A stretch of 51,706 nt of DNA from a virus (IMGVR_UViG_3300030620_000008:1-51706), one strand, 5' to 3'. Numbered from the stretch's first letter, positions 32,912-50,650 are shown. Made by a program: numbers and translations. The notes: generated by a model from the sequence alone, not told the origin.

Positions 32912-32950
32912 AAGTTCAGCGCATGGCTTGAGTGCTCACGCGCTGAACCT
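32912..32950 (-). promoter_or_regulatory. 14-bp hairpin ending at the NTPase start codon
   Basis: AGGUUCAGCGCGUG / CAUGCGCUGAACUU then AUG. Confidence 0.65.
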
Positions 32951-32960
32951 ATTGCCTGTG

Positions 32961-33200
32961 TTACGCGACGTCTGCTGCGTCAATAGCAACGATAAGCGCA
33001 TCCAATTCATTGTGAATTGCTGCTGCTGCCGGCGGATCAATTGATTGAAAAATCGGGCCGACACCTGGAGCACTTGGACGGTCTGAAGGATCACCTATCA
33101 GGGCTCTGAACTTATTGATCTCCGCGATAATCTCCACTTGTGCCGCTGCTGTAATAGGCTCCGTTGGAACTGCGTAACCACCGAACGTTGGAACTGCCAT
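32961..33200 (-). CDS. Small Ala/Pro-rich hypothetical protein
   Basis: 79 aa, SD GGAG. Confidence 0.7.
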   Translation of the reverse strand: MAVPTFGGYAVPTEPITAAAQVEIIAEINKFRALIGDPSDRPSAPGVGPIFQSIDPPAAAAIHNELDALIVAIDAADVA

Positions 33201-33206
33201 CTCGTC

Positions 33207-35708
33207 TTACTCCGTTGTTCCTTGGGTTGAACCAATTGAACTAGTTGAACCTGGGTTGTTAAACGTCAGCGGCACCATTTCTTTTTTGTTCCAAACATGC
33301 CCAATCATTGCATCGACGGGCACAACAAATTGTCTACCGTTAGCTTGACATGGAACATGGACAGTGTCAACAACTAATTTTCTAAGGTGCGGTTTAGTTT
33401 TAGGAATTTGAACTAACATACTGTCATGAAGTTGCAATGATAATAATCCACCTTCATCAAAGAAATTTGTTTTATAGTATAGATTATATAATGCTTTGTT
33501 AATGGCCCCGCTTGTACCGGCTTGTCCAATTTGACTTGCAAGTTCCCGTTGTGTTGAATTGTCATTAATTAAATCACCGAAAAATAATCTGGTTTGTCCC
33601 CAACAATCTGTAAATAGTTTGAAGTTTTTATTCGTCTGCTTGATGATTTCTCTAGTTTGATTAAATGTAGTTGGATATTTTTCATGGTACATCTCAATTA
33701 ATTTACCGCAGAATTTAATTAATTGATCCGACTTCCATTTACTCGCATCTTTATAACCTATTTGTTCAGCGGTAGCTATTGCAGCTTCGTGGCCCATTGT
33801 AACGTACAGTGTAAAACCCATCATAAAATAGTGTGCGCCGTACACTATGCGTTTAGTGTTTTGTCTAACACCTTTAGTACTATGAACAACCCATTCTTCA
33901 TCATTTTTATACCCATTGTAAACTTCTTCATATGGCTTACTGAAGAAATACGCTGCATTAATACAATGTGTATCTCTTGGATCATTTAGTAAATTAATTA
34001 ATTCTTCATCACCTGTTTGATAGGCTGTATAATACATATCACTTTGAGAATAATCCACTTCTAAAAATTCATATCCTTCATCAGCTACGCACATAGCTCG
34101 GATTGGTTTAGGAATATTCTGCCCTTGTGTTCCATATCCTAGATTATGTTTTCTGGAAGCCGCACGATTTGTTTTAGTAGCGCTGGAATTAATTCTAAAG
34201 TACCATCTGTTATTTATTAATGTTAAACCTTTCTCATATTTACTTAAATTATTAGCAGCTTCTTTAACATCTATTAATTGATTAATAATAATTTCTAATA
34301 ATGGGTGCTGGAACTTTATGATATTTAGATATTTCTTATCTGTAGTACGCTCCTTTTCCCCTTTTAAAAGTGGTTGTGCTTTTAATACATCATATATAAG
34401 GCTGGCAACTTGTACAGGTGAATTTTGATTAAAATCTGGATCACTGACCATTAGTTTTAAGTCAGCTAATTTAGTCTCTAATTCTTCTTTAAATCCATTT
34501 AAAATTTTACTGCGCCGATCTTGATCAACTAACAAACCTGTCATTGATGCCAGCAAAGCTGGGCGGGTTAATGGAAAATCTCTTATGTAATTTGTTAATC
34601 CGTATGGTTGAATTAAATTGAGCATTGCTATTGTGGCATATGCTGTATAGTATGTATCTAAGCCGTTGTAATTCAAATACCGATTAAAATTCTCCCGCAT
34701 AATTCTATCGTCAGCGGCGAAATCATCTTCATCTTTACTATCGTCTTTCCAGTAGCGATATTTATCTAATAAAGTTGAACAAATAAACGCAAGATTTCTA
34801 GGAGCTTCTGACCACATTGCGTGGAATAAATAATAGAGATCAAGCCAATACTGATCTACTGGAATATTGTAATACAGTAAATAAGTTAAATCATATGGAC
34901 CGTTTTGGTAAATCTTAGGTACAGGCATTTGTAGAAGTTTTTTAATCCAATACCAAACATCACATTCTTCTTCTGGTATCCAATGGCAATTATTTATTTT
35001 AGTCGGATTATAGAATGGAATAACTAATGTTTTATTTGAACCGTCTTTAAATATTGCTGTGAATGACATACATGTAATAAACGGCTTAGGCCAGCGCCGG
35101 GTTTCTATGTCATGACTGATAAAAATAGCTTTTCTTGCAAGCCTGGCAAAGTTAAATATATCAGTTGTCATTAATGCAATCTTAATATTCGGATCTGGAA
35201 TATTCTTAGGCTTTCCTTCCGCCCATCTTTTAGTCTTAGCCAAATCTCTCATGAATATCCATGTATACCATCTAATGCTTTGCTCATCATCATCCTTTGC
35301 AACTCTTGGTTCAATTGCATAGATTAATTTTTGAACCTCATCCATTACAATACATGGAATTTTATTGTAAAAATAAACACTTCCTCGGCATTTAGGTAGT
35401 GAAGTTATCTGCCGTTCATTGAAGAAACCTAAAGTAGCTTCATCATTAATAACAATTGCTTGCGGTCTTATATTACTGATTAATTGTGTTAAATTAGTAA
35501 ATACTTCGTTTCTTGCATTCGGATTAATAACAATAAGAAAATCTTTTTTTCCTCTTTTAATACGTTTCTCAATCATGGTTTTACATGAATAGTGTAGACT
35601 AGTATAATACATATTATTTTCGGTTAGACCGATTATTTCTAGATAAGGTTTGAGACGGAATTGTAGACCTTTAGAAAAGTTAGGCGGACCTAACCATAAT
35701 ATCTTCAT
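33207..35708 (-). CDS. polA: Family A DNA polymerase with 3'-5' exonuclease and degenerate UDG-like N-terminal domain
   Basis: ExoI HDIET, ExoII QNGPYDL, ExoIII YNGLD; QNIP; motif A DYSQSD; motif B RQNTKRIVYGAHY; motif C LHDS. Confidence 0.93.
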   Translation of the reverse strand: MKILWLGPPNFSKGLQFRLKPYLEIIGLTENNMYYTSLHYSCKTMIEKRIKRGKKDFLIVINPNARNEVFTNLTQLISNIRPQAIVINDEATLGFFNERQITSLPKCRGSVYFYNKIPCIVMDEVQKLIYAIEPRVAKDDDEQSIRWYTWIFMRDLAKTKRWAEGKPKNIPDPNIKIALMTTDIFNFARLARKAIFISHDIETRRWPKPFITCMSFTAIFKDGSNKTLVIPFYNPTKINNCHWIPEEECDVWYWIKKLLQMPVPKIYQNGPYDLTYLLYYNIPVDQYWLDLYYLFHAMWSEAPRNLAFICSTLLDKYRYWKDDSKDEDDFAADDRIMRENFNRYLNYNGLDTYYTAYATIAMLNLIQPYGLTNYIRDFPLTRPALLASMTGLLVDQDRRSKILNGFKEELETKLADLKLMVSDPDFNQNSPVQVASLIYDVLKAQPLLKGEKERTTDKKYLNIIKFQHPLLEIIINQLIDVKEAANNLSKYEKGLTLINNRWYFRINSSATKTNRAASRKHNLGYGTQGQNIPKPIRAMCVADEGYEFLEVDYSQSDMYYTAYQTGDEELINLLNDPRDTHCINAAYFFSKPYEEVYNGYKNDEEWVVHSTKGVRQNTKRIVYGAHYFMMGFTLYVTMGHEAAIATAEQIGYKDASKWKSDQLIKFCGKLIEMYHEKYPTTFNQTREIIKQTNKNFKLFTDCWGQTRLFFGDLINDNSTQRELASQIGQAGTSGAINKALYNLYYKTNFFDEGGLLSLQLHDSMLVQIPKTKPHLRKLVVDTVHVPCQANGRQFVVPVDAMIGHVWNKKEMVPLTFNNPGSTSSIGSTQGTTE

Positions 35709-35738
35709 TAGATTAAGTCCGCCATCTTTTGGTTAGTT

Positions 35739-36089
35739 TTACAAACCACCGGGAGCACGGTCGTGGTTCGCTTTACCGCCACCATGAGCCGCGGCGCTAT
35801 TCATACCAAAGCCTTCCGGTTGTGGACTATTGCCGAGTCGACCAACGAAACGATCATCAGGAGTTCCGCGTCGCTGCGATCCACGTTGGTCCGCATAGGC
35901 ACTGCACGAACGGCATCCGGAGTCCTTATTGGGCCTGTCCGACTCCATTGATAGGAAGGCATGGGCCGTACTTACAATCCAGCCATGCTGTGGCCAGATC
36001 CATGATAGTGGCGCAAAAGTAAAGTACGCGGCTGCAAGGCCAAATAGCAACAAGGCCGTTGCGCCAACAATGGTTAAACGTGGTAGCAT
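35739..36089 (-). CDS. Membrane-anchored hypothetical protein
   Basis: N-terminal hydrophobic helix, then a disordered G/R/S-rich tail; SD GAAGGA; start at 36095 or 36089. Confidence 0.55.
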   Translation of the reverse strand: MLPRLTIVGATALLLFGLAAAYFTFAPLSWIWPQHGWIVSTAHAFLSMESDRPNKDSGCRSCSAYADQRGSQRRGTPDDRFVGRLGNSPQPEGFGMNSAAAHGGGKANHDRAPGGL

Positions 36090-36122
36090 GATCATTCTTT
36101 CCTTCAGGTTTGGTTAAGATAG

Positions 36123-36209
36123 TGGTGCGGGAGACGGGATTTGAACCCGTAATCCTTTTTGAGGAGGCGGATTTTAAGTCCGCTGCGTTTACCATTTCGC
36201 CACTCCCGC
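36123..36209 (-). tRNA. trnL-TAA: tRNA-Leu, anticodon UAA
   Basis: Acceptor stem GCGGGAG/CTCCCGC, anticodon arm GCGGA-CTTAAAA-TCCGC, long variable arm, GGTTCAAATCC, encoded CCA. Confidence 0.96.
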
Positions 36210-36221
36210 AACACACCTTGT

Positions 36222-36773
36222 TTAGGCCGCTTGTTCATCCGTCTTTACATCGCTGATCAGCGTACAAGCATCAAGATCGAGCCTTGAGTAATAGACGTTC
36301 GGCTTTTTCCGATCTTGCTGGTGAACGATTGGCCCGCGGAATTGGTGGCCGATGATGCCTTGTTGAATATCAACCACCGTTCCACTTGCCTTGGCATGGA
36401 TGCTCAGTAACAAATCCTTGAACATTCCAAGCCATTGCTGAACCTGCTCTTGCGTAGGTTTTTTACCCTCTTCAACCGGCAAGAATTGCATCTCGCCGTG
36501 TTCTTTACCAAGCAAGTCCTCATGATCAACGTTTTCATCGGCGCATTCGACAACGCCGATACAGGTGAATGTAGTGAAGAAACAAAGCTTCCCACCCATC
36601 ACTCGTTGTTCAGACTTCTTCAGTTCCCAATCATAGAGCCCGATTGGGAACTTGTAGGCTGTCATGCGGAAACGTTCGACCTCGGTAATATCGACATTAC
36701 CAAGGTCCGCCAACGTCATCTGCATGTCTTGATCGCCAACCTTCACGACGATCGAGTGTTCTTGGTCAGTCAT
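36222..36773 (-). CDS. Putative single-stranded DNA-binding protein
   Basis: 183 aa downstream of the AAA_24 ATPase; FPIGLY beta-rich OB-like pattern; acidic. Confidence 0.5.
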   Translation of the reverse strand: MTDQEHSIVVKVGDQDMQMTLADLGNVDITEVERFRMTAYKFPIGLYDWELKKSEQRVMGGKLCFFTTFTCIGVVECADENVDHEDLLGKEHGEMQFLPVEEGKKPTQEQVQQWLGMFKDLLLSIHAKASGTVVDIQQGIIGHQFRGPIVHQQDRKKPNVYYSRLDLDACTLISDVKTDEQAA

Positions 36774-36894
36774 TGTTACTTTCCACTTCCTGTTTGTTTT
36801 CCTTGGCGGTAAAACAAAGCGAGATCATCACCGCCATTACTAGGGCGCCAATCCAGAGACCAAGGAGAAACGCAAGCCAGCCCGTCCATTCCAT
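36766..36894 (-). CDS. 42-aa single-transmembrane protein (not in ORF track)
   Basis: MEWTGWLAFLLGLWIGALVMAVMISLCFTAKENKQEVESNND; SD GAGG. Confidence 0.7.
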   Translation of the reverse strand: MEWTGWLAFLLGLWIGALVMAVMISLCFTAKENKQEVESNND

Positions 36895-36922
36895 AATCTT
36901 AGCCTCTGCTTTACAGTGTTTG

Positions 36923-37096
36923 TTATTCGTTGTAGGTTGCTAACGTGATTTGATCGTCGTCAACCTCAACAAAGTTGACTTCCTGCTCATCATCAGATGA
37001 TTGCAGGTTTTGCGTAAAGACAACGTCGGTGTCGAGAGTTACCTGGTTTTCTTTAACCAGGTTTAACAGATTAGTAATGAGTTCGAGAACCTTCAC
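36923..37096 (-). CDS. 57-aa acidic protein (not in ORF track)
   Basis: GTG start with GTGA overlap and SD GGAGG; 13 D/E versus 2 K. Confidence 0.7.
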   Translation of the reverse strand: MKVLELITNLLNLVKENQVTLDTDVVFTQNLQSSDDEQEVNFVEVDDDQITLATYNE

Positions 37097-38190
37097 GTTT
37101 TTCCCTCCACGCTGGGTTTGCTGGGTTTACCAAACAAAAGCGTCGGTTTAGGTTGGTTCGATGCTTCTAATTGAATAGGTGTAGGTGGTTTATTAATGAT
37201 TTTCTTTTTTTCCATTGAAGCTTGTAATAAGCCGAATTGTGGATGTGCGTCACCTCTATTATAAAATTTAAATGCTTCTGGTGGTGCACTATTAATAGGT
37301 GTTGAGATAGTCAAATAATCACAAATTTTACTAGGTGATAAATCCTGCCATTTAGTTAAAGCCGGCGGAATTGTTCTAGTACCACCATCTCTTTCATTAC
37401 TTGGTTTACTATCTATGTAAAAATCATTTCCGGCTAATAAGAAATAAAGCATTTCAAAATCAGCTGGCATTTGTATTGCGTGATTAGCGCTTGTTGATTT
37501 AATTTGTGTTTTAATCCATTCTACTTCTTCACGCATTTTACCCGTTGTGGGATTAAGTGTTTGTTTTCTTTTTTCATACCGATCTTCATGTGCTATGATT
37601 ATTAAATGACACGGTAATGATTGTAATTGTTTATAAGTCCATGTTGCGAAATGTCTGGTCCAACCAAATTCTGGCCGCTTTTCATTATCCGGTGTTACAT
37701 CGCTGAAGTCATATTTAGTTTCCAATGCATACTTCCAAGTCAAGCCCCAACAGAATGAAGTCCAACTATCTAATATTAGTATGTCATTGCGAGTAGTTTT
37801 ACTAATATCAATTTCAATATATGGCTGGTCTTTTGTAAGACTGTTAACTGTCGGAACAATTGTTTTATTATTTTCATTCCAGAAAAATCTGCCAGATTGG
37901 TTGTTTGGATAATCATCTTGTTTAAGCATTCTGGTAAAGAATTGTGGCGCTACCGGCATGTCAGTTTTGTCTGATAGGTCTATTACAAAAATTCTATCTC
38001 TTGCGGATTTAGAAATTTGCTTAGCAATATTATAGCCGCCTTCATCAATACATAGATGTATTATATTGAAACCAATTTCAGCAAATTTAAGAGACCACCA
38101 AGTTTTTTTAGTTTTTGGTTTGCCGTAGATTAAGAGATTAATTTTTAGTTGGTGGTTATTGATCATGTCATTGGCGGTTGGCATATTCAA
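37093..38190 (-). CDS. AAA_24/Sak4-like ATPase
   Basis: LLIYGKPKTKKT, LILDSWT, HLIIIAHE. Confidence 0.75.
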   Translation of the reverse strand: MNMPTANDMINNHQLKINLLIYGKPKTKKTWWSLKFAEIGFNIIHLCIDEGGYNIAKQISKSARDRIFVIDLSDKTDMPVAPQFFTRMLKQDDYPNNQSGRFFWNENNKTIVPTVNSLTKDQPYIEIDISKTTRNDILILDSWTSFCWGLTWKYALETKYDFSDVTPDNEKRPEFGWTRHFATWTYKQLQSLPCHLIIIAHEDRYEKRKQTLNPTTGKMREEVEWIKTQIKSTSANHAIQMPADFEMLYFLLAGNDFYIDSKPSNERDGGTRTIPPALTKWQDLSPSKICDYLTISTPINSAPPEAFKFYNRGDAHPQFGLLQASMEKKKIINKPPTPIQLEASNQPKPTLLFGKPSKPSVEGKT

Positions 38191-38585
38191 TTACTCCTAA
38201 TCATAGGTTTTCTGTCCCACCTATACTTCTCTTCATTCGGTAGCGTCGGTTCATTATCAACAATCATTTGATAATCTATATTATCCCAATAATTAACCAT
38301 TTCTTCCGGTTCAACCCCATACATTTTAGCGATTGATTTGAATAATTGGTGATAATTATAAACCGGATCGGTTTCACCTTCCAATACAGGGTAGTTTTTC
38401 TCTTTAATCCAATTCTCATGGGCTAATTGCGCATAGAAATATAGAGCGTGACAAGCTGGATGATCATCTAGGAAGCCGTTTGGCTTTATTAGATTAGTAA
38501 ATCTTTTAGGAGTAAACTTTACAGTAAATTCTTTTTGGCCTTTTATAACATTCATTGGTTGCATAGTAATCTTATCTCTAGGCAT
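38187..38585 (-). CDS. Hypothetical protein
   Basis: 132 aa, overlaps both neighbours. Confidence 0.75.
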   Translation of the reverse strand: MPRDKITMQPMNVIKGQKEFTVKFTPKRFTNLIKPNGFLDDHPACHALYFYAQLAHENWIKEKNYPVLEGETDPVYNYHQLFKSIAKMYGVEPEEMVNYWDNIDYQMIVDNEPTLPNEEKYRWDRKPMIRSN

Positions 38586-38811
38586 CTTTCTTTACTGCCT
38601 TTTCGTTATACTGTATCAGTTTTTCTAAGTCAAAGGTATTCCAATACTCTGGTTTACATTCTACTATATACACGCCGATTACAGGATCAAGTCTACTTAC
38701 TTTCATGGTGTATAGATATTGAATAAGCGCTTTTGTTTTATTCTCCGCATTAATAACCCGTGTAACAGGCACACTCCTTTTACGAATTGTTATGATATAA
38801 AAGGTTTTCAT
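38578..38811 (-). CDS. Hypothetical protein
   Basis: 77 aa, ATGA overlap, SD GGAAG. Confidence 0.7.
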   Translation of the reverse strand: MKTFYIITIRKRSVPVTRVINAENKTKALIQYLYTMKVSRLDPVIGVYIVECKPEYWNTFDLEKLIQYNEKAVKKDA

Positions 38812-39089
38812 GCCGCTTCCTGCATCTTCTTTTGTGCCTTTTGAAATTTTTCTTCGACCTCTTTAAGTAGATCTTTATCTTTTATTAAATGGAAAAAATC
38901 AGGATGTGGCGCATTACATCTTACACATGATCTATATGTCTCATGATAATCCCAAACAAATAATGACGGACTTAGCATACACCAGTAACAAAAATCTTTC
39001 ATAGTTACTAGTGTGATACGGCTTGATGGTGTTAATATTTTATCCGGTTCACTAGCTTTTTGGGGAAATAATTTTTTTAGAAAATTCAT
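38808..39089 (-). CDS. Small zinc-finger-like protein
   Basis: CYWC...CVRC pairs. Confidence 0.65.
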   Translation of the reverse strand: MNFLKKLFPQKASEPDKILTPSSRITLVTMKDFCYWCMLSPSLFVWDYHETYRSCVRCNAPHPDFFHLIKDKDLLKEVEEKFQKAQKKMQEAA

Positions 39090-40091
39090 TTATGCAACCT
39101 CACTCATCTTTTCAAATTCTAACTCAGCCTTAATCCAAGGCTCCGGCCGTTCCCAAATTTTTTCACTAGAGATGTTTTCTTTCATTTGATCTATTGCTTG
39201 TTTAACTAATTGTTTATTATGAACATCATGACAATACTTAAAAAATCTGCAAATATTTCCATAACTATCAACACATCTACTTCCTCTTTTAGGGAACCAT
39301 CCCATTTGATAATATGCTTTAATATCATTTAGATCAGAATAAAAAGTTCTCAACCAGTCTTGAATATCTATTTCAGATTTTGTAATCTGATAAGGTTTAA
39401 CGGATGCCTTTAATATATCTATGTAAACTGAGATATAAATAACAGTTAATGATTTGATTGGCCTATTTTGAATATGTTCTAATACTACTGCGTAAGGGAT
39501 GCATTGATCATCATTGGCATAAACATAAAACATGTCAGCCGGTTTATTTCTACGATGTGTCTTTACATCTATTACTATGTAGGTTTGATCAAGTAATGAA
39601 TAAACTATTCCATCTATAAATCCTACATAGTAGACTGGGATATCTTGAATATCACTCAAGCTAAAGTTAGATATTTTGATTTCAAACGGTACTTCTAAGG
39701 CCGGTCTTGTTAATCCGTCAACGCATTTAATTTCGGTTAATTCATATGGAGTTAAATCTTTCGAACTAGTCATTGCAACTAATGCAGATATACCAGCTTC
39801 AAGACTTCTATTATTAATTGGGTCAGGAACTTGATTAATCGGATAATGCTGTGCATAAGCCCAAATGGCTTCTTCTAAGTTTTTATTCTTGAGCCAAGTT
39901 TGATAACCGATATGCAATGCCTGCCCAATAACAGCAGCGTCACCATCGTAATCATCTTTTATGCGAGGCCATTCAAAAAATTTGGCAAATTCTAATTTCT
40001 TTTCACATGTATTATATGTGCCGCGACTTGAGTGGCTTAGGTCTAAGCGTTTTAAGTTTGGGTAGAAAGAATATAGCATTACAGGTGCCAA
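39090..40091 (-). CDS. PD-(D/E)xK exonuclease, Cas4/RecB-like
   Basis: LSHSS..TYNTC, GQALH, GFIDG..VIDVKT, and C-terminal C..C..C; start is TTG at 40091 or ATG at 40079. Confidence 0.82.
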   Translation of the reverse strand: MAPVMLYSFYPNLKRLDLSHSSRGTYNTCEKKLEFAKFFEWPRIKDDYDGDAAVIGQALHIGYQTWLKNKNLEEAIWAYAQHYPINQVPDPINNRSLEAGISALVAMTSSKDLTPYELTEIKCVDGLTRPALEVPFEIKISNFSLSDIQDIPVYYVGFIDGIVYSLLDQTYIVIDVKTHRRNKPADMFYVYANDDQCIPYAVVLEHIQNRPIKSLTVIYISVYIDILKASVKPYQITKSEIDIQDWLRTFYSDLNDIKAYYQMGWFPKRGSRCVDSYGNICRFFKYCHDVHNKQLVKQAIDQMKENISSEKIWERPEPWIKAELEFEKMSEVA

Positions 40092-40218
40092 CTCAGTTAC
40101 ACTGTTATCCTAGTAGCCGGGGGCCTTGCGAGCTGACCAGGCATGGAGGTCTGGAGTGTGTAACCATCCAGTGTCTCGAGAATGGATGCTTGCCCAGGTT
40201 TATCAAGAAAGTTGGCAT
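40085..40218. ncRNA. Candidate multibranch structured RNA
   Basis: Nested stems TGCCAACT/AGTTGGCA, GTTACAC/GTGTAAC, CATCCA/TGGATG, CTTG/CAAG in a GC-rich spacer. Confidence 0.55.
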
Positions 40219-40235
40219 AATGAAATTATTGTAGA

Positions 40236-40703
40236 TCATTGTATTCCCAACCCATCAAGGATGCTTGAAACATCAGCCACATCACTAGCTTTCTTCCTAG
40301 TCTTGCTTGCCGTACTCTCAGCTCTTTTAACTTGACTGCCGTAGCATTGTTGTAAACCTTTTACCATTATTCCAATATCTTGTGGTTGAAGTATTTCTTT
40401 TAAAACAGGATAACTTTGTAAAATTCCTAACACATATCTAACATCTTTAGAAACTAATTCTTTATCACTAAAATTTGCGACAATTGATGCAAGTGAAGTC
40501 TTAATATTACCCTTTAAAATCTCTTCATCGGTCTCTTCTTGAATTTGATCTTTTTTGCTTGAAATTGCTTGGATTTCAGTGGTTTGTAATTGTTCTGCAA
40601 TTTGTTCATTTGTTAATTGTTTAACTGCATTGCTAGCTGGTGTGCTGCCACGTTTAGATGCGGCAAGAGCCTCTTGAAGAAGTTTAACGGCGTTACTTGT
40701 CAT
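40236..40703 (-). CDS. Hypothetical protein
   Basis: 155 aa, helical, SD AAGGA. Confidence 0.75.
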   Translation of the reverse strand: MTSNAVKLLQEALAASKRGSTPASNAVKQLTNEQIAEQLQTTEIQAISSKKDQIQEETDEEILKGNIKTSLASIVANFSDKELVSKDVRYVLGILQSYPVLKEILQPQDIGIMVKGLQQCYGSQVKRAESTASKTRKKASDVADVSSILDGLGIQ

Positions 40704-40879
40704 TGTTGTGTTTTCCTTTTTTTATTAAGTTCTGGTCGATTAGAATTAAGCCATGTTTCAATAGCTTCTAAAATACTTTTTGGTGTTAAATCAATTGGAG
40801 GTGTATGCATAATATGATGAAAAATTATTTGAGCTAATTGACGTTTTGGATCAAAATGTGGTGTTGCTTGTTCAGACAT
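40700..40879 (-). CDS. 59-aa hypothetical protein (not in ORF track)
   Basis: MSEQATPHFDPKRQ...; SD AGGAG; ATGA overlap with the next gene. Confidence 0.7.
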   Translation of the reverse strand: MSEQATPHFDPKRQLAQIIFHHIMHTPPIDLTPKSILEAIETWLNSNRPELNKKRKTQQ

Positions 40880-40889
40880 TTATTCTCTC

Positions 40890-41684: not shown

Positions 41685-41718
41685 CTTTAGAAACCTCCAT
41701 TCAAACTGTTAGTGTGTT

Positions 41719-42069: not shown

Positions 42070-42075
42070 GGTCTC

Positions 42076-42104
42076 TTTATATACTAAATAACACGGTTTG
42101 TCAA
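42076..42104 (-). promoter_or_regulatory. Sigma70-like promoter
   Basis: TTGACA-N17-TATAAA. Confidence 0.7.
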
Positions 42105-43193: not shown

Positions 43194-43211
43194 TGCTCAT
43201 ACTCCTTTGTG

Positions 43212-43496
43212 CTAAGCGCCTTTACTATGGTTAGGCTTGCCTTTTCTTTGGGTATAGGGAATTGATGATCTAACAGCTAGCTTAGGAGTTAGTACGGTAG
43301 TTACGTGCCAAAACTGGAATAGCTCTTCATAGTATCTTTCTAATCTTAACTGTAATTGACTCGGCTTATGAAAATCTTTTTCATTTTTACCGAATATTGT
43401 AGGCGGTTGAAGTTCTATTGCTAAATTTGTTATTAATTTAGTAAATTCATCTGGATCAGGAATTAGATGGCCGGGACTAGACATGTTCATCTCCAT
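43212..43496 (-). CDS. Hypothetical protein
   Basis: About 90 aa ORF in the operon. Confidence 0.6.
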   Translation of the reverse strand: MEMNMSSPGHLIPDPDEFTKLITNLAIELQPPTIFGKNEKDFHKPSQLQLRLERYYEELFQFWHVTTVLTPKLAVRSSIPYTQRKGKPNHSKGA

Positions 43497-43737
43497 AATG
43501 ATCCTTTGTAGGATATGCAGTGCAATCCGGGCAAGGAATTAAATAACCAATAGCGTTTTGAATATGCCTTATATCATTGCAAGTATTGCAATTGAATTGA
43601 ATAGTTCTGCGCATTTCAGCAAGCGCTTGGCGCGCATCAAGACGGGCAATCCTCTCGGCGCGTGTATAATGCTCGCAATTGTCTCGCGCAGCGAGAAGTC
43701 TCCTAATGATTATAGTCAGCTTGTCAATTGTGTACAC
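43477..43737 (-). CDS. Zinc-finger-like hypothetical protein
   Basis: CNTC...CPDC; SD AAGGAG before GTG. Confidence 0.65.
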   Translation of the reverse strand: MYTIDKLTIIIRRLLAARDNCEHYTRAERIARLDARQALAEMRRTIQFNCNTCNDIRHIQNAIGYLIPCPDCTAYPTKDHYGDEHV

Positions 43738-43753
43738 AGGTTCGTACTCCTTG

Positions 43754-43963
43754 CTAGGGTTTCAACCAAAAGTTAGAAGCGGAACACCCAATGCCCGTGG
43801 CGGCAACCATGCTCGGGCCTCCGGCCGGCTTATTATCCAAAGCACGTAGATCAGCTTTCATGCGTTGTAATTTGTTCCATGGAGCGGAACCATATCCAAG
43901 TCGAACGGTAGCCAAAACACGTTCTAGCAGCCAGATTGCTTCAATTAGTTCCCATCTTTCCAT
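43754..43963 (-). CDS. Hypothetical protein
   Basis: Likely start MERWEL just after the helicase stop. Confidence 0.55.
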   Translation of the reverse strand: MERWELIEAIWLLERVLATVRLGYGSAPWNKLQRMKADLRALDNKPAGGPSMVAATGIGCSASNFWLKP

Positions 43964-43967
43964 CTGT

Positions 43968-45848
43968 TTATTCCCTTTCATTCCGTTCATCTTGCGAAGC
44001 ATCCGGCCACTTAGGAACTAGATGATCTTCCTTATCTTGCAAATCCATAAAACTCTTTGCCTTTTGTTCCAATGACAATCCTTTAATCCTCTGCCTACTT
44101 AACGCATTTAATAAGCCTCTTTTATTAGATAATAAAATAACCTTATCAATAGCTCTAGTAACTGCAGTATACAACCATTCTCTATAGAGCATTCTATCGT
44201 TTTCTGTATGGCATACGATAACAACTAATGGAAACTCCCCGCCTTGACACTTATGACAAGTTGCCGCATACGCATGCATTAGTTGATTAAATGAGCCGAC
44301 TGTTCTAAATTCAACATCTTGATCTTCAAATCTTACTGTTACAATATGACTTGCTTGTCTTTGTGCTTTTTCTGCAAAATCACTATTTTTACCCTCTTCT
44401 AAATCTTTATTTCTTTTATCAAACGCGTTGTTTACATCTTGTGCAAATTCTGCGCTATTAAGTGTTGCCATTAGTTCATTAAAATCGATTGCGCTTCTCG
44501 GATCGAATTTAATCTTATCTCTCACTGATGAGTATAATTCATTAGGTTTGATTTTAATAACCCTACCAATCATTCCATTAGTTAATCCCCTTTCATTATC
44601 ATTCTGCGTTAGCATTAGTTTATCATTAACCGCTAATGCAATATGCTTGAATGCCGCGCTGATAATAATTCTTTCTCCTTTGGCTGGATTGAAGTATGAG
44701 ACAAAATGATCATTAAGATGCTCTTGCCCGAGAATACCTACATTTTGTGGAACAATTAAAGCATCCCTGAATGGATCAAATGATCCTTGTTTATGTAATG
44801 TTTTAATAATTTTTAAAACTTTAGTATATGCTTCATGCTCGTCATCAGGTAAATTAACCATTACAAAATTGTTAGGATGCGTGTCTGGAATATAACCCTG
44901 TAATATATTATGTGCGCCGGCGATGATTGGATTATCTAATGCTTGGCGATGGATTTTTGTTAATTCAAAGGTGGGCCATTGCTGCATTGCATAGCCTAAA
45001 ACTGATTTACCATTTACTGGCGGGAGCTGGTTAATGTCTCCGAGTTGGTAGACTTTTGTTTTTGGAAGTGTCGCCTTTACTAAATTATTCCAAAGCCAAA
45101 CCTGAACATTGCCAGCTTCATCAATTATAATAATATCGGCTGTTAAAGGATTAGTTTCTGTTCTATGCGGCACAAATAATCTTTTAGTTTCTCCGCTATT
45201 AATATCTACAATACCAACAGGTTTGTATTCTAAATGCGCATGAATTGTTCTACAGAATTTTCTTAGATGCATTGGAACATGCAAAGCCAAATTCCTTGAA
45301 GCTCTACCAGTAAATGAACATAGAATAATCTCTGGCTCACGATTGTATTTTTGAATAAATTCATCTGTTATTTTTGCAAGAAATCTATTAGTAATAGTAG
45401 TCTTACCAGTTCCAGCCGCGCCAATGATACATGCGTATTGATGATCTAGTAATCCTTTAAGCGCAAGCTCTTGACTTTCATCGAAAATTAAGGTTTTTTC
45501 CTTTTCAATGTAATCAGTTGGTTTAGAAGTTTCATCAATTTTTTCAATGGCACTGCCATCTATTAAAACTTCCGCATCTTTAGCAACTAATTCTTTTCGC
45601 GCGGCAAGTGTCATAGGAATGTTAATTTTAACATTCCTTCTATTCATGATTGATGCGATTTGCTTTTCTAATGCTGTTTTATTCTTATCAATTGTACCGG
45701 CCGGAGCTTTTGAAGGCGAAGCCTTGGCTTTATTCAATAAGGCTAGAAAATGTAATTCTTGTTCTGTTTTCTTTTTATTAATCTCACTTGAATTTTCAGT
45801 CGGCCTGGTAGAAGAGGTTGGTTTTAACTGAAGATTGAACATTTTCAT
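43968..45848 (-). CDS. RecD/Dda-like superfamily 1B DNA helicase
   Basis: GAAGTGKTT, IIDEAG, GDINQLPPV, LTKIHRQ, AYAATCHKCQG, LYTAVTRA; start placed at the ATGA overlap at 45848 (frame is open from 46001). Confidence 0.92.
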   Translation of the reverse strand: MKMFNLQLKPTSSTRPTENSSEINKKKTEQELHFLALLNKAKASPSKAPAGTIDKNKTALEKQIASIMNRRNVKINIPMTLAARKELVAKDAEVLIDGSAIEKIDETSKPTDYIEKEKTLIFDESQELALKGLLDHQYACIIGAAGTGKTTITNRFLAKITDEFIQKYNREPEIILCSFTGRASRNLALHVPMHLRKFCRTIHAHLEYKPVGIVDINSGETKRLFVPHRTETNPLTADIIIIDEAGNVQVWLWNNLVKATLPKTKVYQLGDINQLPPVNGKSVLGYAMQQWPTFELTKIHRQALDNPIIAGAHNILQGYIPDTHPNNFVMVNLPDDEHEAYTKVLKIIKTLHKQGSFDPFRDALIVPQNVGILGQEHLNDHFVSYFNPAKGERIIISAAFKHIALAVNDKLMLTQNDNERGLTNGMIGRVIKIKPNELYSSVRDKIKFDPRSAIDFNELMATLNSAEFAQDVNNAFDKRNKDLEEGKNSDFAEKAQRQASHIVTVRFEDQDVEFRTVGSFNQLMHAYAATCHKCQGGEFPLVVIVCHTENDRMLYREWLYTAVTRAIDKVILLSNKRGLLNALSRQRIKGLSLEQKAKSFMDLQDKEDHLVPKWPDASQDERNERE

Positions 45849-46054
45849 AGCAAAGTCGGTCCATGCTTGGGTGTCGTAGGGGTCGAGGAAATGATATTCT
45901 GTGAATTTATAATCTTCTGTTGATTTGAAAGCTTCTTTTGCTTGGTAAATGTTAGTAAGTTGATAATGAATTGTTCTGCCCATGTAATAGTTTCCTCCCA
46001 TGCGGGATGTATTGTAGGTCGACCCTCAATAGGGATTATATAATGCTCAGTCAT
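45845..46054 (-). CDS. Hypothetical protein
   Basis: MTEHYIIPIEG..., overlaps both neighbours. Confidence 0.6.
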   Translation of the reverse strand: MTEHYIIPIEGRPTIHPAWEETITWAEQFIINLLTFTKQKKLSNQQKIINSQNIISSTPTTPKHGPTLL

Positions 46055-46319
46055 TGATTTGTATCTTTTTGCATTCCCATACGTCATATGGATATGCTTT
46101 TTCTTTTGGCACGATATAGTTATCTGTTACTTTATGGCAAGTAAGTAATTGTATGCCAACATTTCTGCCAGCCAAATACATATCGCCCGGCTTAATTTCT
46201 TCATCGACTATAGTTACGCCTAATTTTTTTGCAGCATCAAAATAATCTTGTTCTTCGACATGTTGACGACCTGGCCATGTGCGAGTAATTTTTAACACAT
46301 AGTTATCAACCATTTTCAT
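46047..46319 (-). CDS. Hypothetical protein
   Basis: 90 aa, TAATG-coupled. Confidence 0.75.
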   Translation of the reverse strand: MKMVDNYVLKITRTWPGRQHVEEQDYFDAAKKLGVTIVDEEIKPGDMYLAGRNVGIQLLTCHKVTDNYIVPKEKAYPYDVWECKKIQIND

Positions 46320-47470
46320 TACTCCGCTTTCTTTGCGCCAAATCCTGGAATTTTAATTCCAGTCTTGGCATTTCTTAATTCTACCGATTGCCTATTTTTT
46401 GGTATTGGAATAATGACCGGCTTTTCACCTGCTTTCTGTCTTATTGTATATTTTCCTTGCTTTTCTGATGAAACTGGAGAGGCCGCTTTCTGTGCAATCT
46501 GAAACATCATTCTTCTAGCAATAATTTCAGCTTCAATAATACTACTTTCATCATACGGGTCTACATCATCTACGATATTTTCAATAATGATACCAATATC
46601 CACGAATTGACTACGCTTGTATTGGTTCCTGAAATTAGACGCGCCGGTTTGCGTGACCGTTTCAATAAATTCAATTGCTTTTGAACGTAGTTTTAATCTA
46701 CGCTTGTAGAAGTCTACAAGTTTTTGCAAAGCAGGTTTTAACTCTTTGATTAGAATTGATGGAACTAATTCAACAAACTGCTTTTCAAACGCCCACTTAT
46801 CACTTAGCGGCGTAAGTGATAATTTCTTTTCAAGATTTCCGCCGCTACGATGTATGCGAGTGCTAATTGTTAAATACTTATGTAATAGTTTATTTGCGTG
46901 ATGAATATCTTCGATTGTAAAGTTATGAATACCTATAGGGTTACTTGTAACATTATTAAGCTTCTGTCTAAGCAGGTACTTAGCCTTAATGAATTGAATT
47001 ATAATTCCACAAGCAGTATAATCAGGAAGCTTGCCAACTCTGGCAGCTTCCTTCATAACCATTAATTGATTTGTGTTAGAAGTGTTTTGAAATGATAGTA
47101 ATTGACTGAGCGCATAAATGTAATAGCCTTCAGGATCAATTTCCATTAATTTGTCTAAAGCTATACCATCCGTGTAAATCCATGGCAATGCAATATGGGA
47201 AATATTCATATGAACTAATGCTGTTTGCGTTCTTTCAATTCCATTAGTTTCAATCATTTCTTGCAATTCATTGTCATTCCATTGACCCAATTGCTTGCCA
47301 GTTTTTGAACAAACCTTTAGAAGCAAGAAAGGATCAATTCGCTTAGACAAAGCTTCCCTATCAAGAGGTTCAGGCTCTTGTTCATGGTTTATTAGAAGTT
47401 GAACAACACTCTCTGAAAGGTCTAGCCCGTTTGGTAGACCGTTAGAAGGAACGTTAGAAACTTGTAACAC
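46319..47470 (-). CDS. Hypothetical protein (383 aa)
   Basis: Long ORF with its own promoter; no family recognised. Confidence 0.85.
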   Translation of the reverse strand: MLQVSNVPSNGLPNGLDLSESVVQLLINHEQEPEPLDREALSKRIDPFLLLKVCSKTGKQLGQWNDNELQEMIETNGIERTQTALVHMNISHIALPWIYTDGIALDKLMEIDPEGYYIYALSQLLSFQNTSNTNQLMVMKEAARVGKLPDYTACGIIIQFIKAKYLLRQKLNNVTSNPIGIHNFTIEDIHHANKLLHKYLTISTRIHRSGGNLEKKLSLTPLSDKWAFEKQFVELVPSILIKELKPALQKLVDFYKRRLKLRSKAIEFIETVTQTGASNFRNQYKRSQFVDIGIIIENIVDDVDPYDESSIIEAEIIARRMMFQIAQKAASPVSSEKQGKYTIRQKAGEKPVIIPIPKNRQSVELRNAKTGIKIPGFGAKKAE

Positions 47471-47525
47471 TTTCTTAACCCCTAGCTGCGCCGTTTGTTT
47501 TGGCGTATAAACGCCTTATCATTAT

Positions 47526-47554
47526 CTATAGCACAACTAGGTTAAAAAGTCAAG
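47526..47554 (-). promoter_or_regulatory. Sigma70-like promoter
   Basis: CTTGAC-N17-CTATAG. Confidence 0.65.
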
Positions 47555-47592
47555 AACTATTTATTACTTACACAAGAAAATTTCAGATAATA

Positions 47593-47895
47593 TCAATGTC
47601 CTGTAAAGTGTGTTATTTGGAATGATAAAGCTTTTTCGTATTCATCGATCGCCTTGGTTAAACCACTAACACGTTTGCGGTGCCTGATCGTGGTGTCGAG
47701 CATGACCACGGCGGCGTCGCGGAGCTCATCGCCAACCTCTAGCAGGCGGTCGAGCTCATCTTCATGCCCGCGTTGCAGCTTAGCCAGCGCCTCTTCGATG
47801 GTTGTGGTGATCCTCTTGCCGAGCGCTCCTAGGGCATCGATCTCATGAGGCATGAGGGGGCCCCGCGCGATCTCGCGTTGTGTTGCCTGGCGCAT
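47593..47895 (-). CDS. Coiled-coil hypothetical protein, GC-rich gene
   Basis: 100 aa, SD AAAGGA. Confidence 0.7.
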   Translation of the reverse strand: MRQATQREIARGPLMPHEIDALGALGKRITTTIEEALAKLQRGHEDELDRLLEVGDELRDAAVVMLDTTIRHRKRVSGLTKAIDEYEKALSFQITHFTGH

Positions 47896-48297
47896 TTATC
47901 TAATTCCTTTCTCACGATCCATTTGTTCTTTAAGCCGCATCATTTCTTTTAATTCTTCTTCTTCCTCTTTAGTCAAAGCTTCTGTGTCTAAATAATCTAA
48001 TCCTTTAATTTCTGATAATACATCAGTCGGCGGATTTGGAAATTCTTTTCTTATTAATTCTTTATCCTCTTTGGTTATTTTATCTAAATCTTCTTTCCTG
48101 AAATTTATCTCCAAGTTAGCTTTGCGTTTCAATGTATTAATAACATCCCACGCTTCTCTAACTTGCTTATGATTTTTTCTCTTACCAAAAAATGTACAAG
48201 ATATTAAGTATTGATTTGCTTTGAGGAATAATAAATCAATTTCTTCTTGGGATAATTTATTCCCTCTTTGAAATCTGTATACTGATTGATGTGCCAT
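47896..48297 (-). CDS. Hypothetical protein
   Basis: 133 aa, first gene of the - arm. Confidence 0.75.
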   Translation of the reverse strand: MAHQSVYRFQRGNKLSQEEIDLLFLKANQYLISCTFFGKRKNHKQVREAWDVINTLKRKANLEINFRKEDLDKITKEDKELIRKEFPNPPTDVLSEIKGLDYLDTEALTKEEEEELKEMMRLKEQMDREKGIR

Positions 48298-48341
48298 TGT
48301 CTTTAGCCTTTTGTTTTCATAGGTAGATCCATATTCTAATT

Positions 48342-48368
48342 AGTATACTAAACAACTTATAAAGTCAA
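48342..48368 (-). promoter_or_regulatory. Promoter-like element
   Basis: TTGACT-N15-TATACT; spacer is short, but it aligns with the 42104 promoter. Confidence 0.45.
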
Positions 48369-48414
48369 TCTAAATCTATTAATTGAAACTTGAAAATTTC
48401 TGTAATAAATACGG

Positions 48415-48916
48415 ATACCGGTCCCTGTTTAGATCCTATTTAGACCGGAAACCCGCAGAAAGCCTAGGCTTTTGCCTGCCCTATGGCAATCTAAATAGGG
48501 CATCAGCCGGACCCGGCCTACCCTGCCCGGTGCGACCATGCTACTAATGTTACATATCCCTCTATCTAATCTAATATATCCTTATCCTATCCAATCTATT
48601 CCCTATCTTACCTATTCTTATCCAATAAATCCTTTGGACGTTGGATTTCATATATAGGGGGTACACTAAAAATTTACATTTTAGTAATTAATTTTAATAA
48701 TAGATTTTTTTCTTTCTATTAAAAATTTTTGATACCCCCTTAAAAGACTGTTTAGATTGGCAGGCAAACCTAATACATCCTTTGTATGATTAGCGACAGG
48801 TTTGGTGCCCCCCTGCCGGACGGGGTACCCCGGGGCGATCCTGCCCTATTTAGATCGGAGTAAACTGCCGCAAGCCTCTGATTTTCCTATATAAAAGCCC
48901 AAAGTGGGACCGGTAT
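48415..48916. other. Candidate replication origin
   Basis: Three nested inverted-repeat pairs around an AT-rich core, palindromes, and repeated CTRTTTAGA. Confidence 0.55.
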
Positions 48917-49059
48917 AGAGACCGGTACCCGGTTCTACCTGTGAAATAGTGTGAAATCCAGGCAACGTTGCCTAGCCGCAAGTCAAAAATTCCCTCCGAC
49001 AAGTCAAAAAACTCTTGACTTGCACCGTTGCTTGTGAGAGTATTCTTTTATGGTCTCAA

Positions 49060-49300
49060 ACGCTAAGCGAGCGAGGCAATCGGAAAACAGCTCCGGTGCG
49101 CGGAAACCGTAGACGTGGCGCCGGAAATCGCGAGGTACGGCGTTGCATCAAGATCCCCGCTAGCAGTTGTGGGCAGCAGTAGATGTAATGTTTTCCTCGC
49201 AAACAAGGTAAGTCTCACCTAATGTTGAGATACTACCTTGATGGTTTAACTTAAATCGCGGTGCAATGCCGCAAAATGCGGATAGCCCGCAAAGTGTGGA
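49060..49300 (+). ncRNA. Candidate structured RNA / long 5' leader
   Basis: Five or more stems whose non-Watson-Crick pairs are G-U on the + strand. Confidence 0.55.
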
Positions 49301-49313
49301 AAGGCTAAGACAA

Positions 49314-50261
49314 ATGGTTGCTCAAGGAATTCCATCAAGTGGTGGTGTCCAGCCTTCGGAGCCTTCGGAGGAAGTCACCATTACCAGCCTCGGTCAAGAA
49401 TACGTCGAAAGTATTCTTGGCGAGGAACGTGCAACCGATCCGGCTTGGCAAGCAAAACTTGTCGAGACTGTGAAGGAACTGCCTGCTAACTTGGCAGAGT
49501 TTCGTCGTGAAGTCTTCTCTCCGAATGACTTCAATAATGATGAAGCTTTGCTTCGCATGGCAGTTCTTCAAGACTGGCTAAGTCGCGAAGTCGAGAATAA
49601 TCCAAAGATCCGCTTCGTAACTAACAATCGCTCAGAGGATGGCAGTATCCCTAGCGGCTATTGCCTTGTCTTTACGCCGGTCACGCAGCAAGCCAAGAAA
49701 CAAGGTGATCCGCTTGAACTACTCGCAGTTCTGAGCGGCGTGGTTCCCTCCTACGACTTGCTTACCACTTCAACCAAGGGCAAGGAATACATCATTGACG
49801 CAGTCGAAAGCGCGTTGGTCAATCGACTGGCCAACGTCGCACGTCGCAGCGTCAAGCTTCCTGGCAAGTTCCAGATGCCATTTACTGTCGATGAATACAT
49901 CAGTCGGCAGCGTGGTGTGGAAAGCCTGGCAGCATTCCGCAAGATCGGCCCTGCCTTCGTCGATGCACTCAAAAAGCGTCGCATGACTAGCTTCATGACG
50001 CTGGACATGCTGCGTTTGTGCCTTAGCAACGCTACCATGACCGACAGTGTGTTCGGAGACAAGATGCCAAGCGAGGCATGGGATACGATCCTCGATGCCA
50101 TGATTCGCAAGGCTGAGGAAGCTGGTCTTGATCCCGGTATCTTCAAGACCTGGAAAGCTACCAGGCATCAAGCTGAGGCTCTTGTGGAAGATGATCAAGA
50201 GCCTGATGAAGATGAACAGTCACTTGAAAGCTTGCTTGGCGCTGTGACAGTCGCTTCGTAG
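49314..50261 (+). CDS. Hypothetical protein (~315 aa) with acidic C-terminal tail
   Basis: GGAAAGG before ATG at 49314; GC-richer codon usage; frame is open from 49266. Confidence 0.85.
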   Translation: MVAQGIPSSGGVQPSEPSEEVTITSLGQEYVESILGEERATDPAWQAKLVETVKELPANLAEFRREVFSPNDFNNDEALLRMAVLQDWLSREVENNPKIRFVTNNRSEDGSIPSGYCLVFTPVTQQAKKQGDPLELLAVLSGVVPSYDLLTTSTKGKEYIIDAVESALVNRLANVARRSVKLPGKFQMPFTVDEYISRQRGVESLAAFRKIGPAFVDALKKRRMTSFMTLDMLRLCLSNATMTDSVFGDKMPSEAWDTILDAMIRKAEEAGLDPGIFKTWKATRHQAEALVEDDQEPDEDEQSLESLLGAVTVAS

Positions 50262-50297
50262 AGCCTTCACAGGCTTTCGACAAGTTCTTCAAGAGGC

Positions 50298-50334
50298 AAT
50301 TGGGCAGATGAAATAGTCTGCCCAATTTGCTTTT
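50298..50334 (+). terminator. Intrinsic terminator-like hairpin
   Basis: AATTGGGCAGA/TCTGCCCAATT followed by TGCTTTT. Confidence 0.7.
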
Positions 50335-50354
50335 AGCCCTAGGAGAATGAGAAA

Positions 50355-50516
50355 ATGACCACTAATCCGGTCGAGCATCCAATCGTGACAAAGGCCCGTA
50401 ACGACTTTCGACATGGTTTGCGTGACGTGCCTGAAAGACCTGATCATCGTGACATGTACTTAGCGGCATGGAACGCGTTGCGTGATAAACACGCTGGTGT
50501 ATCTGCCGCTTCGTAA
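50355..50516 (+). CDS. 53-aa hypothetical protein (not in ORF track)
   Basis: MTTNPVEHPIVTKARNDFRHG...; SD AGGAG. Confidence 0.7.
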   Translation: MTTNPVEHPIVTKARNDFRHGLRDVPERPDHRDMYLAAWNALRDKHAGVSAAS

Positions 50517-50650
50517 ACACTTGAAGACAATCAAGCAGACGTAAAGGTCTTTCAAGCGAAGCGTTTGCAGCTAGAGCGGTCGGCAATGAATAGCAAACAA
50601 GCCGACCGCTCAATGGTGCAAATGATTGCACCTTGCTAGGAGCGAGTAAC

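Follow-up and report, generated by a model that had tools for sequence, protein, structure and literature searches.

Heterogeneous GC-rich spacers and a strongly folded right-end unit in the genome of an uncultured soil phage

The window analyzed here (IMGVR_UViG_3300030620_000008) is a whole phage genome of 51,706 bp in one contig, with a terminal direct repeat of 136 bp (1-136 and 51571-51706; copies 99% identical) and a guanine-plus-cytosine (GC) content of 0.389. The phage is uncultured, and near-identical DNA is found in soil-metagenome runs from two samples. Packaging and structural genes lie on the plus strand (242-30268), and replication genes run along the minus strand from 48297 down to 30235. 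The right end contains a short GC-rich plus-strand unit (49266-50884), plus one minus-strand gene, g105 (51023-51340). The elements in question are five GC-rich spacers: spacer 1, before the primase gene; spacer 2, before an exonuclease gene; spacer 3, before the 78-aa gene g78; and spacers 4 and 5, in the right-end unit. A sequence-only reading proposed that these are folded leaders which impose gene timing after transcription, possibly read by a phage RNA-binding protein. To our knowledge, little is known of how gene expression is ordered in phages that depend wholly on host RNA polymerase, beyond a few model phages, and a purely RNA-based programme would be notable. The evidence says that the five spacers are ordinary and heterogeneous.

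The spacers are indeed GC-rich, at 0.55 (32912-32960), 0.48 (40092-40235), 0.47 (41956-42100), ~0.51 (49050-49265) and 0.49 (50517-50650), a range of 0.47-0.55, whereas the genome as a whole has 0.389. The structural arm has spacers rich in adenine and thymine (AT-rich), with GC of 0.34, 0.21 and 0.36. Folding was assessed on the transcribed strand against 200 dinucleotide shuffles. By this measure, the description of the spacers as stem-rich holds for three of the five: 32912-32960, 49050-49300 and 50517-50655 fold better than their shuffles (z -6.3, -2.8 to -3.4, and -4.6), whereas 40092-40235 and 41956-42100 fold no better. No 7-mer occurs in three or more of the five spacers, and the best pairwise matches are 7-9 nucleotides long at E >= 0.34. 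The idea that all five are copies of one repeat was dropped. With Rfam 15 applied to both strands of the whole window, the gathering score is reached by a transfer RNA (tRNA-Leu, 36126-36209) only, and at none of the spacers. At E <= 5, the sole match inside a spacer, at 50574-50613, is a chance-level one to a microRNA model, scoring 24 bits where 58 is the gathering score (E = 1).

Each spacer had also been described as touching or covering the initiation region of the next gene. This is clear for one of the five, at the primase start. Start accessibility, taken as the mean unpaired probability over positions -14 to +6, averages 0.48 (standard deviation 0.16) across 63 start sites. The primase start has a value of 0.15 (rank 2 of 63); g78 follows at 0.30 and the exonuclease at 0.32 or 0.45, for a TTG or an ATG start, respectively. 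The remaining two starts, of g77b (0.49) and g331 (0.55), are average. The three least accessible starts are those of the 383-aa gene g383 (0.11), primase and DNA polymerase (0.19), all in the replication arm. Three values more than 1.8 standard deviations below the mean among 63 starts is close to chance expectation.

The distribution of folding along the genome is uneven. Among sense-strand 100-nucleotide windows, z falls below -3 in 15 of 1205 (1.2%) in 1-30200, 19 of 720 (2.6%) in 30201-48297 and 21 of 133 (15.8%) in 48298-51706. The statement that the structural arm is free of such elements is therefore roughly right, and sense-biased structure does lie outside that arm, concentrated at the right end. 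What finds no support is the idea of one coordinated programme. Folded elements also occur outside the five spacers originally listed, at ~49473-49566, 50298-50334, 50980-51012 and, on the minus strand, 47472-47556.

Spacer 1 contains a hairpin of ~16 bp (32910-32952, minus strand), which lies 3' of the stop codon of a 79-aa gene and whose 3' arm reaches the primase ATG (32911). The interval 32905-32965 on this strand has a predicted free energy (dG) of -29.3 and z of -6.3, with 0 of 200 shuffles as good; strand by strand, z for the spacer is -5.8 on the minus strand versus -4.2 on the plus strand. The 79-aa gene (32961-33200) has a GC content of 0.51 within a backbone of ~0.35, and the hairpin begins ~10 bases after its stop. 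A homologue in the related locus L006 is similarly off-composition (GC 0.48 versus 0.38 for its genome) and is followed within ~15 nucleotides by a GC stem and T-run, a canonical terminator. In the window, the stem-loop is GC-rich, as in an intrinsic terminator, and its 3' tail is U-rich but interrupted. Inspection by eye of the 130 nucleotides upstream of the primase start in 16 relatives, read as unfolded sequence, revealed no conserved hairpin.

Small accessory-gene cassettes in tailed phages, known as morons, have intrinsic terminators and 3' hairpins. The pairing of an off-composition small gene with a strong GC stem-loop resembles this arrangement, both here and after g331 in the right-end unit, and the same pairing is present in L006 and in a second related locus, L161. 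Spacer 1 differs from a moron in that its hairpin lacks a clean T-run and overlaps the next start codon, and no cassette promoter was identified. Spacer 1 is most likely the 3' hairpin of a GC-rich 79-aa gene cassette, serving as a partial terminator or 3'-end stabilizer. Because the hairpin abuts the primase ATG, primase translation is predicted to be lowered. Occlusion of this start is perhaps a consequence of the upstream gene's hairpin, and maybe one that is exploited.

No Shine-Dalgarno sequence lies between the hairpin and the primase ATG, and the only purine-rich AGG nearby is at the 5' foot of the hairpin, where it is paired in the predicted fold. Passages of PMC3014915 describe 'split' initiation regions at T4 genes 38 and 25, where a hairpin brings a distant Shine-Dalgarno sequence near the AUG. 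The primase hairpin is likewise immediately 5' of the AUG with an AGG at its 5' foot. Unlike that T4 arrangement, as far as those passages go, the AGG here is itself paired, and relatives are without the arrangement. A split initiation region of this type would be a formal alternative for the primase start.

Spacer 2 (40092-40235, minus strand) is non-coding, lies upstream of the PD-(D/E)XK exonuclease gene (39090-40091, minus strand) and is unfolded. Values of z are -0.9 for 40085-40218 and +0.5 for 40092-40235 on the minus strand, with an overall range of -0.9 to +1.1, and its 100-nucleotide windows give z of -1.5 to +1.7, none significant. In three related loci (L014, L134 and L008), the exonuclease gene directly follows the upstream gene with no spacer. 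Spacer 2 is an unfolded GC-rich insertion specific to this lineage.

Spacer 3 (41956-42100, minus strand) combines a predicted sigma-70-like promoter with a GC-rich 5' leader of ~115 nucleotides for g78. It too is unfolded: z is -0.3 for 41956-42069 and -0.7 for 41956-42075, both on the minus strand, and +0.3 to +1.2 for 100-nucleotide windows on the transcribed strand. With either strand considered, 100-nucleotide windows of spacers 2 and 3 span z of -1.7 to +1.7, none significant. The real start of g78 is the ATG at 41955, which a strong GGAGG precedes. In the minimum-energy fold this Shine-Dalgarno sequence pairs with a CCUCC located close to the leader's 5' end, and the fold as a whole is no better than chance. 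The 14-nucleotide ribosome-binding region at 41956-41969 is repeated identically before the next gene, at 41686-41699. On this reading of the DNA, spacer 3 consists of a predicted host-type promoter and an ordinary 5' leader. The suggestion of tRNA-like genes hidden in spacers 2 and 3 was dropped, as ARAGORN gave the tRNA-Leu gene only.

Spacers 4 and 5 belong, as untranslated parts, to one predicted rightward transcript (~49040-50900) with folding along its whole length. Spacer 4 and its putative promoter (49015-49313, plus strand) comprise a -35 element, TTGACT, at 49015-49020, followed by a folded 5' leader of ~265 nucleotides with several stem-loops. The -35 element is flanked by GCAAGTCAA repeats in dyad arrangement (48978, 48999, and an inverted copy at 49010-49023). 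This promoter was recognized by reading the sequence, and a consensus promoter scan did not list it. For spacer 4, z is -3.4 for 49060-49300 on the plus strand versus -1.3 on the minus strand, -2.8 for 49050-49265 on the plus strand, and -3.2 for 49195-49320.

The folding continues into the gene that follows, g331, a 331-codon frame (49266-50261, plus strand) that yields a 315-aa form from the ATG at 49314 (coding sequence 49314-50261). Hairpins are predicted at ~49360-49440 and, with ~40 bp, at ~49473-49566 (z -5.1). The first 581 nucleotides of the transcript (49040-49620, plus strand) have a dG of -227.4 against -176.3 +/- 6.7 for shuffles, a z of -7.6; the minus strand gives -3.5. The remaining coding part of g331 has z of -4.0 (20 shuffles). 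Plus-strand windows across 49040-50900 average z of -1.98, whereas GC-rich coding DNA elsewhere in the genome averages -0.23 (Mann-Whitney p = 5e-5, non-overlapping windows), and folding is stronger on the plus than on the minus strand (Wilcoxon p = 0.02). Permutation of synonymous codons gives z of -6.1 for the first 309 coding nucleotides (0 of 100 permutations as stable), -2.8 for the second third (0 of 60) and -2.5 for the last third (1 of 60), versus -0.45 and +0.09 for two control GC-rich genes. Since synonymous permutations are less stable, the fold of g331 is not a by-product of its protein.

Downstream of g331 lies a predicted intrinsic terminator, t1 (50298-50334, plus strand; z -4.9), with the GC-rich stem (12 bp), short loop (6 nucleotides) and T-run (tail TGCTTTT) of its class. 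The core of spacer 5 (50574-50632, plus strand) is a pair of tandem hairpins between g53 and g77b. Stem 1 is a perfect 11 bp (50574-50584/50601-50611) with a 16-nucleotide loop, and stem 2 is 7 bp (50615-50621/50626-50632) with no T-run after it. The AGGAG at 50638-50642 and the g77b ATG at 50651 lie just 3' of these hairpins and are not occluded. The interval 50517-50655 on the plus strand has z of -4.6 (0 of 200), and both strands fold. A final hairpin of 14 bp (50980-51012; z -3.6) separates the convergent genes g77b (plus) and g105 (minus). Its T-run predicts a terminator of the minus-strand gene; read on the plus strand, the hairpin has no T-run.

The protein encoded by g331 belongs to an uncharacterized family. 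A full HMMER scan identified 227 homologues (cluster representatives) at E <= 1e-3, ~260 aa long with an acidic C-terminus, which establishes the 331-codon frame as real. Searches of g331 by sequence against Pfam, PHROG and PDB gave zero matches, and a word-index search and Atlas returned g331 itself only. A structural model (predicted local distance difference test score, pLDDT, 85.7) had no Foldseek match at E <= 0.001 in PDB or BFVD, and its best VIA-align score, Z of 5.0 over 72 residues, is not convincing. In an alignment of 75 homologues, the columns for residues 13-33 of the 315-aa form (nucleotides 49350-49412) are filled in <10%, and those for residues 11-35 in at most 21%. This insertion of ~21-25 residues coincides with two hairpins.

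Comparison of the g331 family at the DNA level relies on one locus, L161, retrieved with a four-sequence alignment. None of the 160 loci gathered by polymerase contains a g331 homologue, and a single-protein scan for further loci of the family returned none. In L161, iteron-like repeats occupy a divergent promoter region. Next come the family gene, a canonical terminator in the same place as t1, two small genes, a terminator and a small minus-strand gene. These are followed by a 197-aa protein gene, large terminase and portal. The 197-aa protein is 33% identical to the product of the first gene of the window (242-829), and is likely the small terminase subunit (TerS-like). The window and L161 thus have in common the family gene, a terminator, small genes, a terminator, and the TerS-like, large terminase (TerL) and portal genes. 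By this synteny, the right-end unit lies directly upstream of the late genes, with the contig ends falling between. In both loci seen, the unit headed by the g331-family gene immediately precedes the packaging genes. The family has the terminators in common but not the extreme folding.

The relatives also bear on the spacers. The 160 related loci (1.97 Mb in total) were gathered with a polymerase alignment; the DNA polymerase alone as query had found nothing among viral contigs. Metagenomic relatives with polymerases 28-40% identical to that of the window keep the order helicase, DUF6011, exonuclease, g132, AAA_24, g183, polymerase, primase. A blastn search of the spacers against the 160 loci gave zero matches, and no homologue of any spacer that could be aligned was found, L161 included. 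At these junctions, relatives that keep the gene order carry either an AT-rich spacer or none, and in AT-rich relatives the replication-arm spacers have a GC content of 0.17-0.41; in L014, the gap at the junction with the giant gene has a GC content of 0.45. Given the absence of matches, the AT-rich spacers of relatives and the lack of a spacer at their exonuclease junction, the GC-rich spacers are lineage-specific. None of the strain differences listed for four soil runs over 31500-51400 lies in a spacer; those listed are confined to 36405-36523, 47679-47863 and 48567, plus insertions or deletions at 47226-47228 and 48807.

No RNA polymerase, sigma factor or repressor was recognized, in agreement with the sequence-only reading. 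Pfam was applied to 40 of ~63 predicted proteins and PHROGs to 30, and no RNA-binding family was found among the proteins scanned. This is a weak negative, because most early proteins are orphans. In sequence searches against PDB, g105, g100, g133b, the 1683-aa protein and g331 returned nothing significant, and g105 has no homologue and a single-sequence model with pLDDT of 56.9.

Candidate regulatory features do occur at the DNA level. An exact 15-nucleotide repeat (42106-42120 and 48392-48406) lies upstream of two predicted leftward promoters. The predicted promoter of spacer 3 has a -35 element TTGACA at 42104-42099, and the leftward operon has the same -35/-10 block in its own predicted promoter (48344-48368). 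Candidate host-type promoters also precede structural genes, at 206-235 and 20776-20804.

One further minus-strand element links a promoter-like site with a start codon. An interrupted helix of 21 bp (47472-47556, minus strand; z -4.9, 0 of 200) ends two bases before the GTG start (47470) of g383. Its 5' arm lies over a promoter-like site (TTGACT, 17 nucleotides, TGC-TATAGA), and its 3' arm lies over the g383 Shine-Dalgarno sequence. In T4 gene e (lysozyme) and I-TevI, as outlined in parts of PMC3014915, the ribosome-binding site is sequestered in early read-through transcripts and a late promoter lies inside the hairpin. The helix here has the same geometry, with the Shine-Dalgarno sequence and start region sequestered. 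By analogy, transcripts from upstream would be closed to translation and transcripts from the internal promoter open. The difference is that the promoter here is predicted and host-type, and no late sigma factor is known.

At the polymerase start (35683-35736, minus strand), perfect 7-bp complements cross one another (35736-35730/35696-35690 and 35723-35717/35689-35683), so that, around the Shine-Dalgarno sequence and ATG, there would be two helices that exclude each other or else a strained pseudoknot. The local fold is non-significant in one test (z -0.05).

Between the divergent operons, the non-coding region 48400-48960 contains a 14-nucleotide perfect inverted pair (48489-48502/48842-48855) and imperfect inverted arms. 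The arms flank an AT-rich core (48545-48740) with short iteron-like repeats and its own 21-nucleotide inverted repeat. This region looks like a replication origin in its repeat architecture, and L161 has iteron-like repeats at the matching place. The initiation regions of the first genes of the two operons (48294-48311 and 49300-49317) are near-identical save for a one-base shift.

Taken together, the data are best explained by heterogeneous spacers with local hairpins, in a genome where host-type promoters and terminators set the timing, an account that is probable rather than secure. The five spacers do not look like a single timing system, because they are unrelated: one is a hairpin at a gene end, two are unfolded, and two are parts of the same, unusually tightly folded messenger RNA (mRNA). 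In the proposed mechanism, the spacer 1 hairpin would act at the end of the 79-aa gene cassette, as partial terminator or stabilizer, while also lowering primase translation; spacers 2 and 3, GC-rich and unfolded, would be a lineage-specific insertion and a plain leader. The rightward transcript would start at a host-type promoter near 49015-49045 and be folded over its whole length, through the multi-hairpin leader, the g331 coding hairpins, t1 and the tandem intercistronic hairpins. The role of this folding is most likely in mRNA stability, processing and read-through within the short unit. It is more likely that features of the DNA, namely sigma-70-like promoters, terminators and promoter-adjacent repeats, are the first to set gene timing. 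Local effects on termination, mRNA stability and a few start sites would then be left to RNA hairpins.

Several points weigh against this explanation. The promoters, transcript ends and termination it invokes are predictions, and no DNA-binding regulator was identified to read the promoter-linked repeats. The spacer 1 hairpin has no clean T-run and its site was not listed by the consensus terminator scan, so termination there is uncertain and may be partial; contact with the primase start could be this hairpin's real purpose. That the three lowest start accessibilities are all in the replication arm fits with some translational control. At the right end, folding of the first ~570 nucleotides exceeds the usual need of a stability element, making a more specific function possible, and the corresponding leader and 5' coding part of L161 are unfolded (z +1.3).

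An alternative, which is unlikely, is that the GC-rich spacers are passive scars of imported GC-rich DNA, with hairpins that are terminators arriving with their genes and no regulation. In this mosaic genome, islands of ~50% GC, coding genes included, interrupt an AT-rich backbone, and spacers 1, 4 and 5 lie within such islands. Import is also consistent with the absence of a fold in spacers 2 and 3, and with the occurrence of parts of two GC-rich genes (36359-36560 and 47625-47860), at ~85-95% identity, on further contigs from these soil runs. However, import of GC-rich DNA alone is insufficient, because the coding fold of g331 exceeds both its synonymous permutations and the other GC-rich islands. 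In addition, the primase-start hairpin and the 47472-47556 helix involve initiation regions of the backbone.

A second alternative, decidedly unlikely, is that 49040-49620 is a cis-acting functional RNA, for example an antiterminator that carries transcription past t1 and the 50980-51012 hairpin into the late genes and so sets late timing. The put RNA of phage HK022 is a cis-acting antiterminator RNA of ~70 nucleotides with two stem-loops. As with put, the folded RNA here lies directly behind a promoter, in this case a putative one, and upstream of a strong terminator, and synteny with L161 places the unit next to the TerS-like, TerL and portal genes. Its exceptional, sense-strand folding, which is retained against synonymous permutation, and the coincidence of two hairpins with a coding stretch absent from most homologues would also suit such a role. 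Unlike put, the folded domain is ~570 nucleotides rather than ~70, overlaps coding sequence and has no detectable relative, and no homologous RNA or Rfam match is known for it. L161 has the same terminators and no folded leader; therefore such an RNA is not needed in at least that relative. The candidate host-type promoters before structural genes also argue against a dependence of late genes on read-through.

In its broadest form, this proposal would make ~49040-49620 a large lineage-specific structured RNA domain, arising in part from in-frame insertion at the 5' end of a conserved gene, that acts as RNA itself, which is quite improbable. Possible roles would be as a cis-acting antiterminator timing late-gene read-through, or as a processing or decoy RNA. 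If the domain does act as RNA, a phage without a recognized RNA polymerase or sigma factor would be using RNA structure as its late switch. Whatever its role, the right-end unit is folded beyond what composition, codon constraints and the one available homologue would predict, making it a testable candidate for RNA control in an uncultured soil phage.

It is highly improbable that the inverted repeats act in DNA, as sites for dimeric proteins or as origin or packaging signals. The 11 bp of the spacer 5 stem form a perfect inverted repeat, with equal folding on the two strands, and the neighbouring 48400-48960 is origin-like, with its inverted pair and iteron-like repeats. However, folding at spacer 1 and along the right-end unit is better on the sense than on the antisense strand, which points to RNA because this is the pattern expected of G-U pairs.

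Least probable of all is the coordinated programme itself, in which five folded leaders, gated by a phage RNA-binding protein, time translation of the next genes: folding is genuine in three of the five spacers, a hairpin buries the primase start, adjacent genes have an identical 14-nucleotide ribosome-binding region, initiation regions are alike for the genes that head the two divergent operons and orphan early proteins could hide an RNA-binding protein, but two spacers are unfolded, no common sequence or structure joins the five, only one downstream start is clearly occluded, relatives that keep the gene order lack the spacers and no RNA-binding family was found in the 40 Pfam-scanned proteins. 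There is a precedent for such a mechanism in T4, where, in the portions of PMC3014915 on these repressors, RegA, gp32 and gp43 are phage proteins that bind the initiation regions of several mRNAs. The proposed programme would use the same mechanism; it differs from those T4 cases in that no homologue of these proteins was recognized among the proteins scanned, and no operator-like motif is common to the five spacers. Given the heterogeneity of the spacers, the programme should not be carried forward as stated.

On the plus strand are the large terminase (2201-3667), portal (5953-7884) and major head protein (8946-10127) genes, and a gene for a 1683-aa protein (25011-30062). On the minus strand are the DUF3987 primase (31574-32911), family-A DNA polymerase (33207-35708), tRNA-Leu (36123-36209, by ARAGORN), AAA_24 protein (37093-38190), DUF6011 protein (42477-43193) and RecD/Dda-like helicase (43968-46001) genes. 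The nearest cultured phages, by polymerase identity of 26-30%, are Polaromonas phage Tiera, the Pseudomonas PaP2/119X group and EBPR podovirus 3. Among 5.8 billion database proteins, the best match to the polymerase has 40% identity, and megablast and blastn searches against 50,697 phage records gave zero matches.

The giant 1683-aa protein is encoded on the opposite strand in relatives that keep the replication gene order, at 25-28% identity and always opposite the primase end of the replication arm. It matches two PHROGs only, both of unknown function. It could conceivably be a virion-borne enzyme.

Other GC-rich segments of the mosaic are coding. Four structural genes of ~50% GC lie at 14554-20742 within a backbone of ~35%, which suggests an imported tail-fibre or host-range module; none of its proteins tested matched a PHROG. 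Between the polymerase and AAA_24 genes, an island with GC of 0.49 (35701-37182) contains tRNA-Leu(UAA) (36123-36209), a 118-aa open reading frame (ORF; 35739-36095), g183 and a 41-codon ORF (36770-36894). The N-terminus of the 118-aa product resembles a membrane helix by eye, the 41-codon ORF is likewise membrane-peptide-like, and g183 is conserved in relatives. A GC-rich 100-aa gene (47593-47895, GC 0.56) and part of g183 (36359-36560) have variants ~85-95% identical on other contigs of the same soil runs. Variants of the 100-aa gene have loose ends at 47625, and one contig skips 47663-47778. These observations point to modules shared among co-occurring phages.

Two features lie beside the terminase genes. 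A DHH-family phosphoesterase gene (822-1775; PHROG 4771, E 2.7e-73) is situated between the TerS-like and large terminase genes, a position at which L161 has no gene. Adjacent to the large terminase gene, a 558-aa gene (3830-5506) contains at least nine copies of a coding repeat with a period of ~60 nucleotides (3938-4831).

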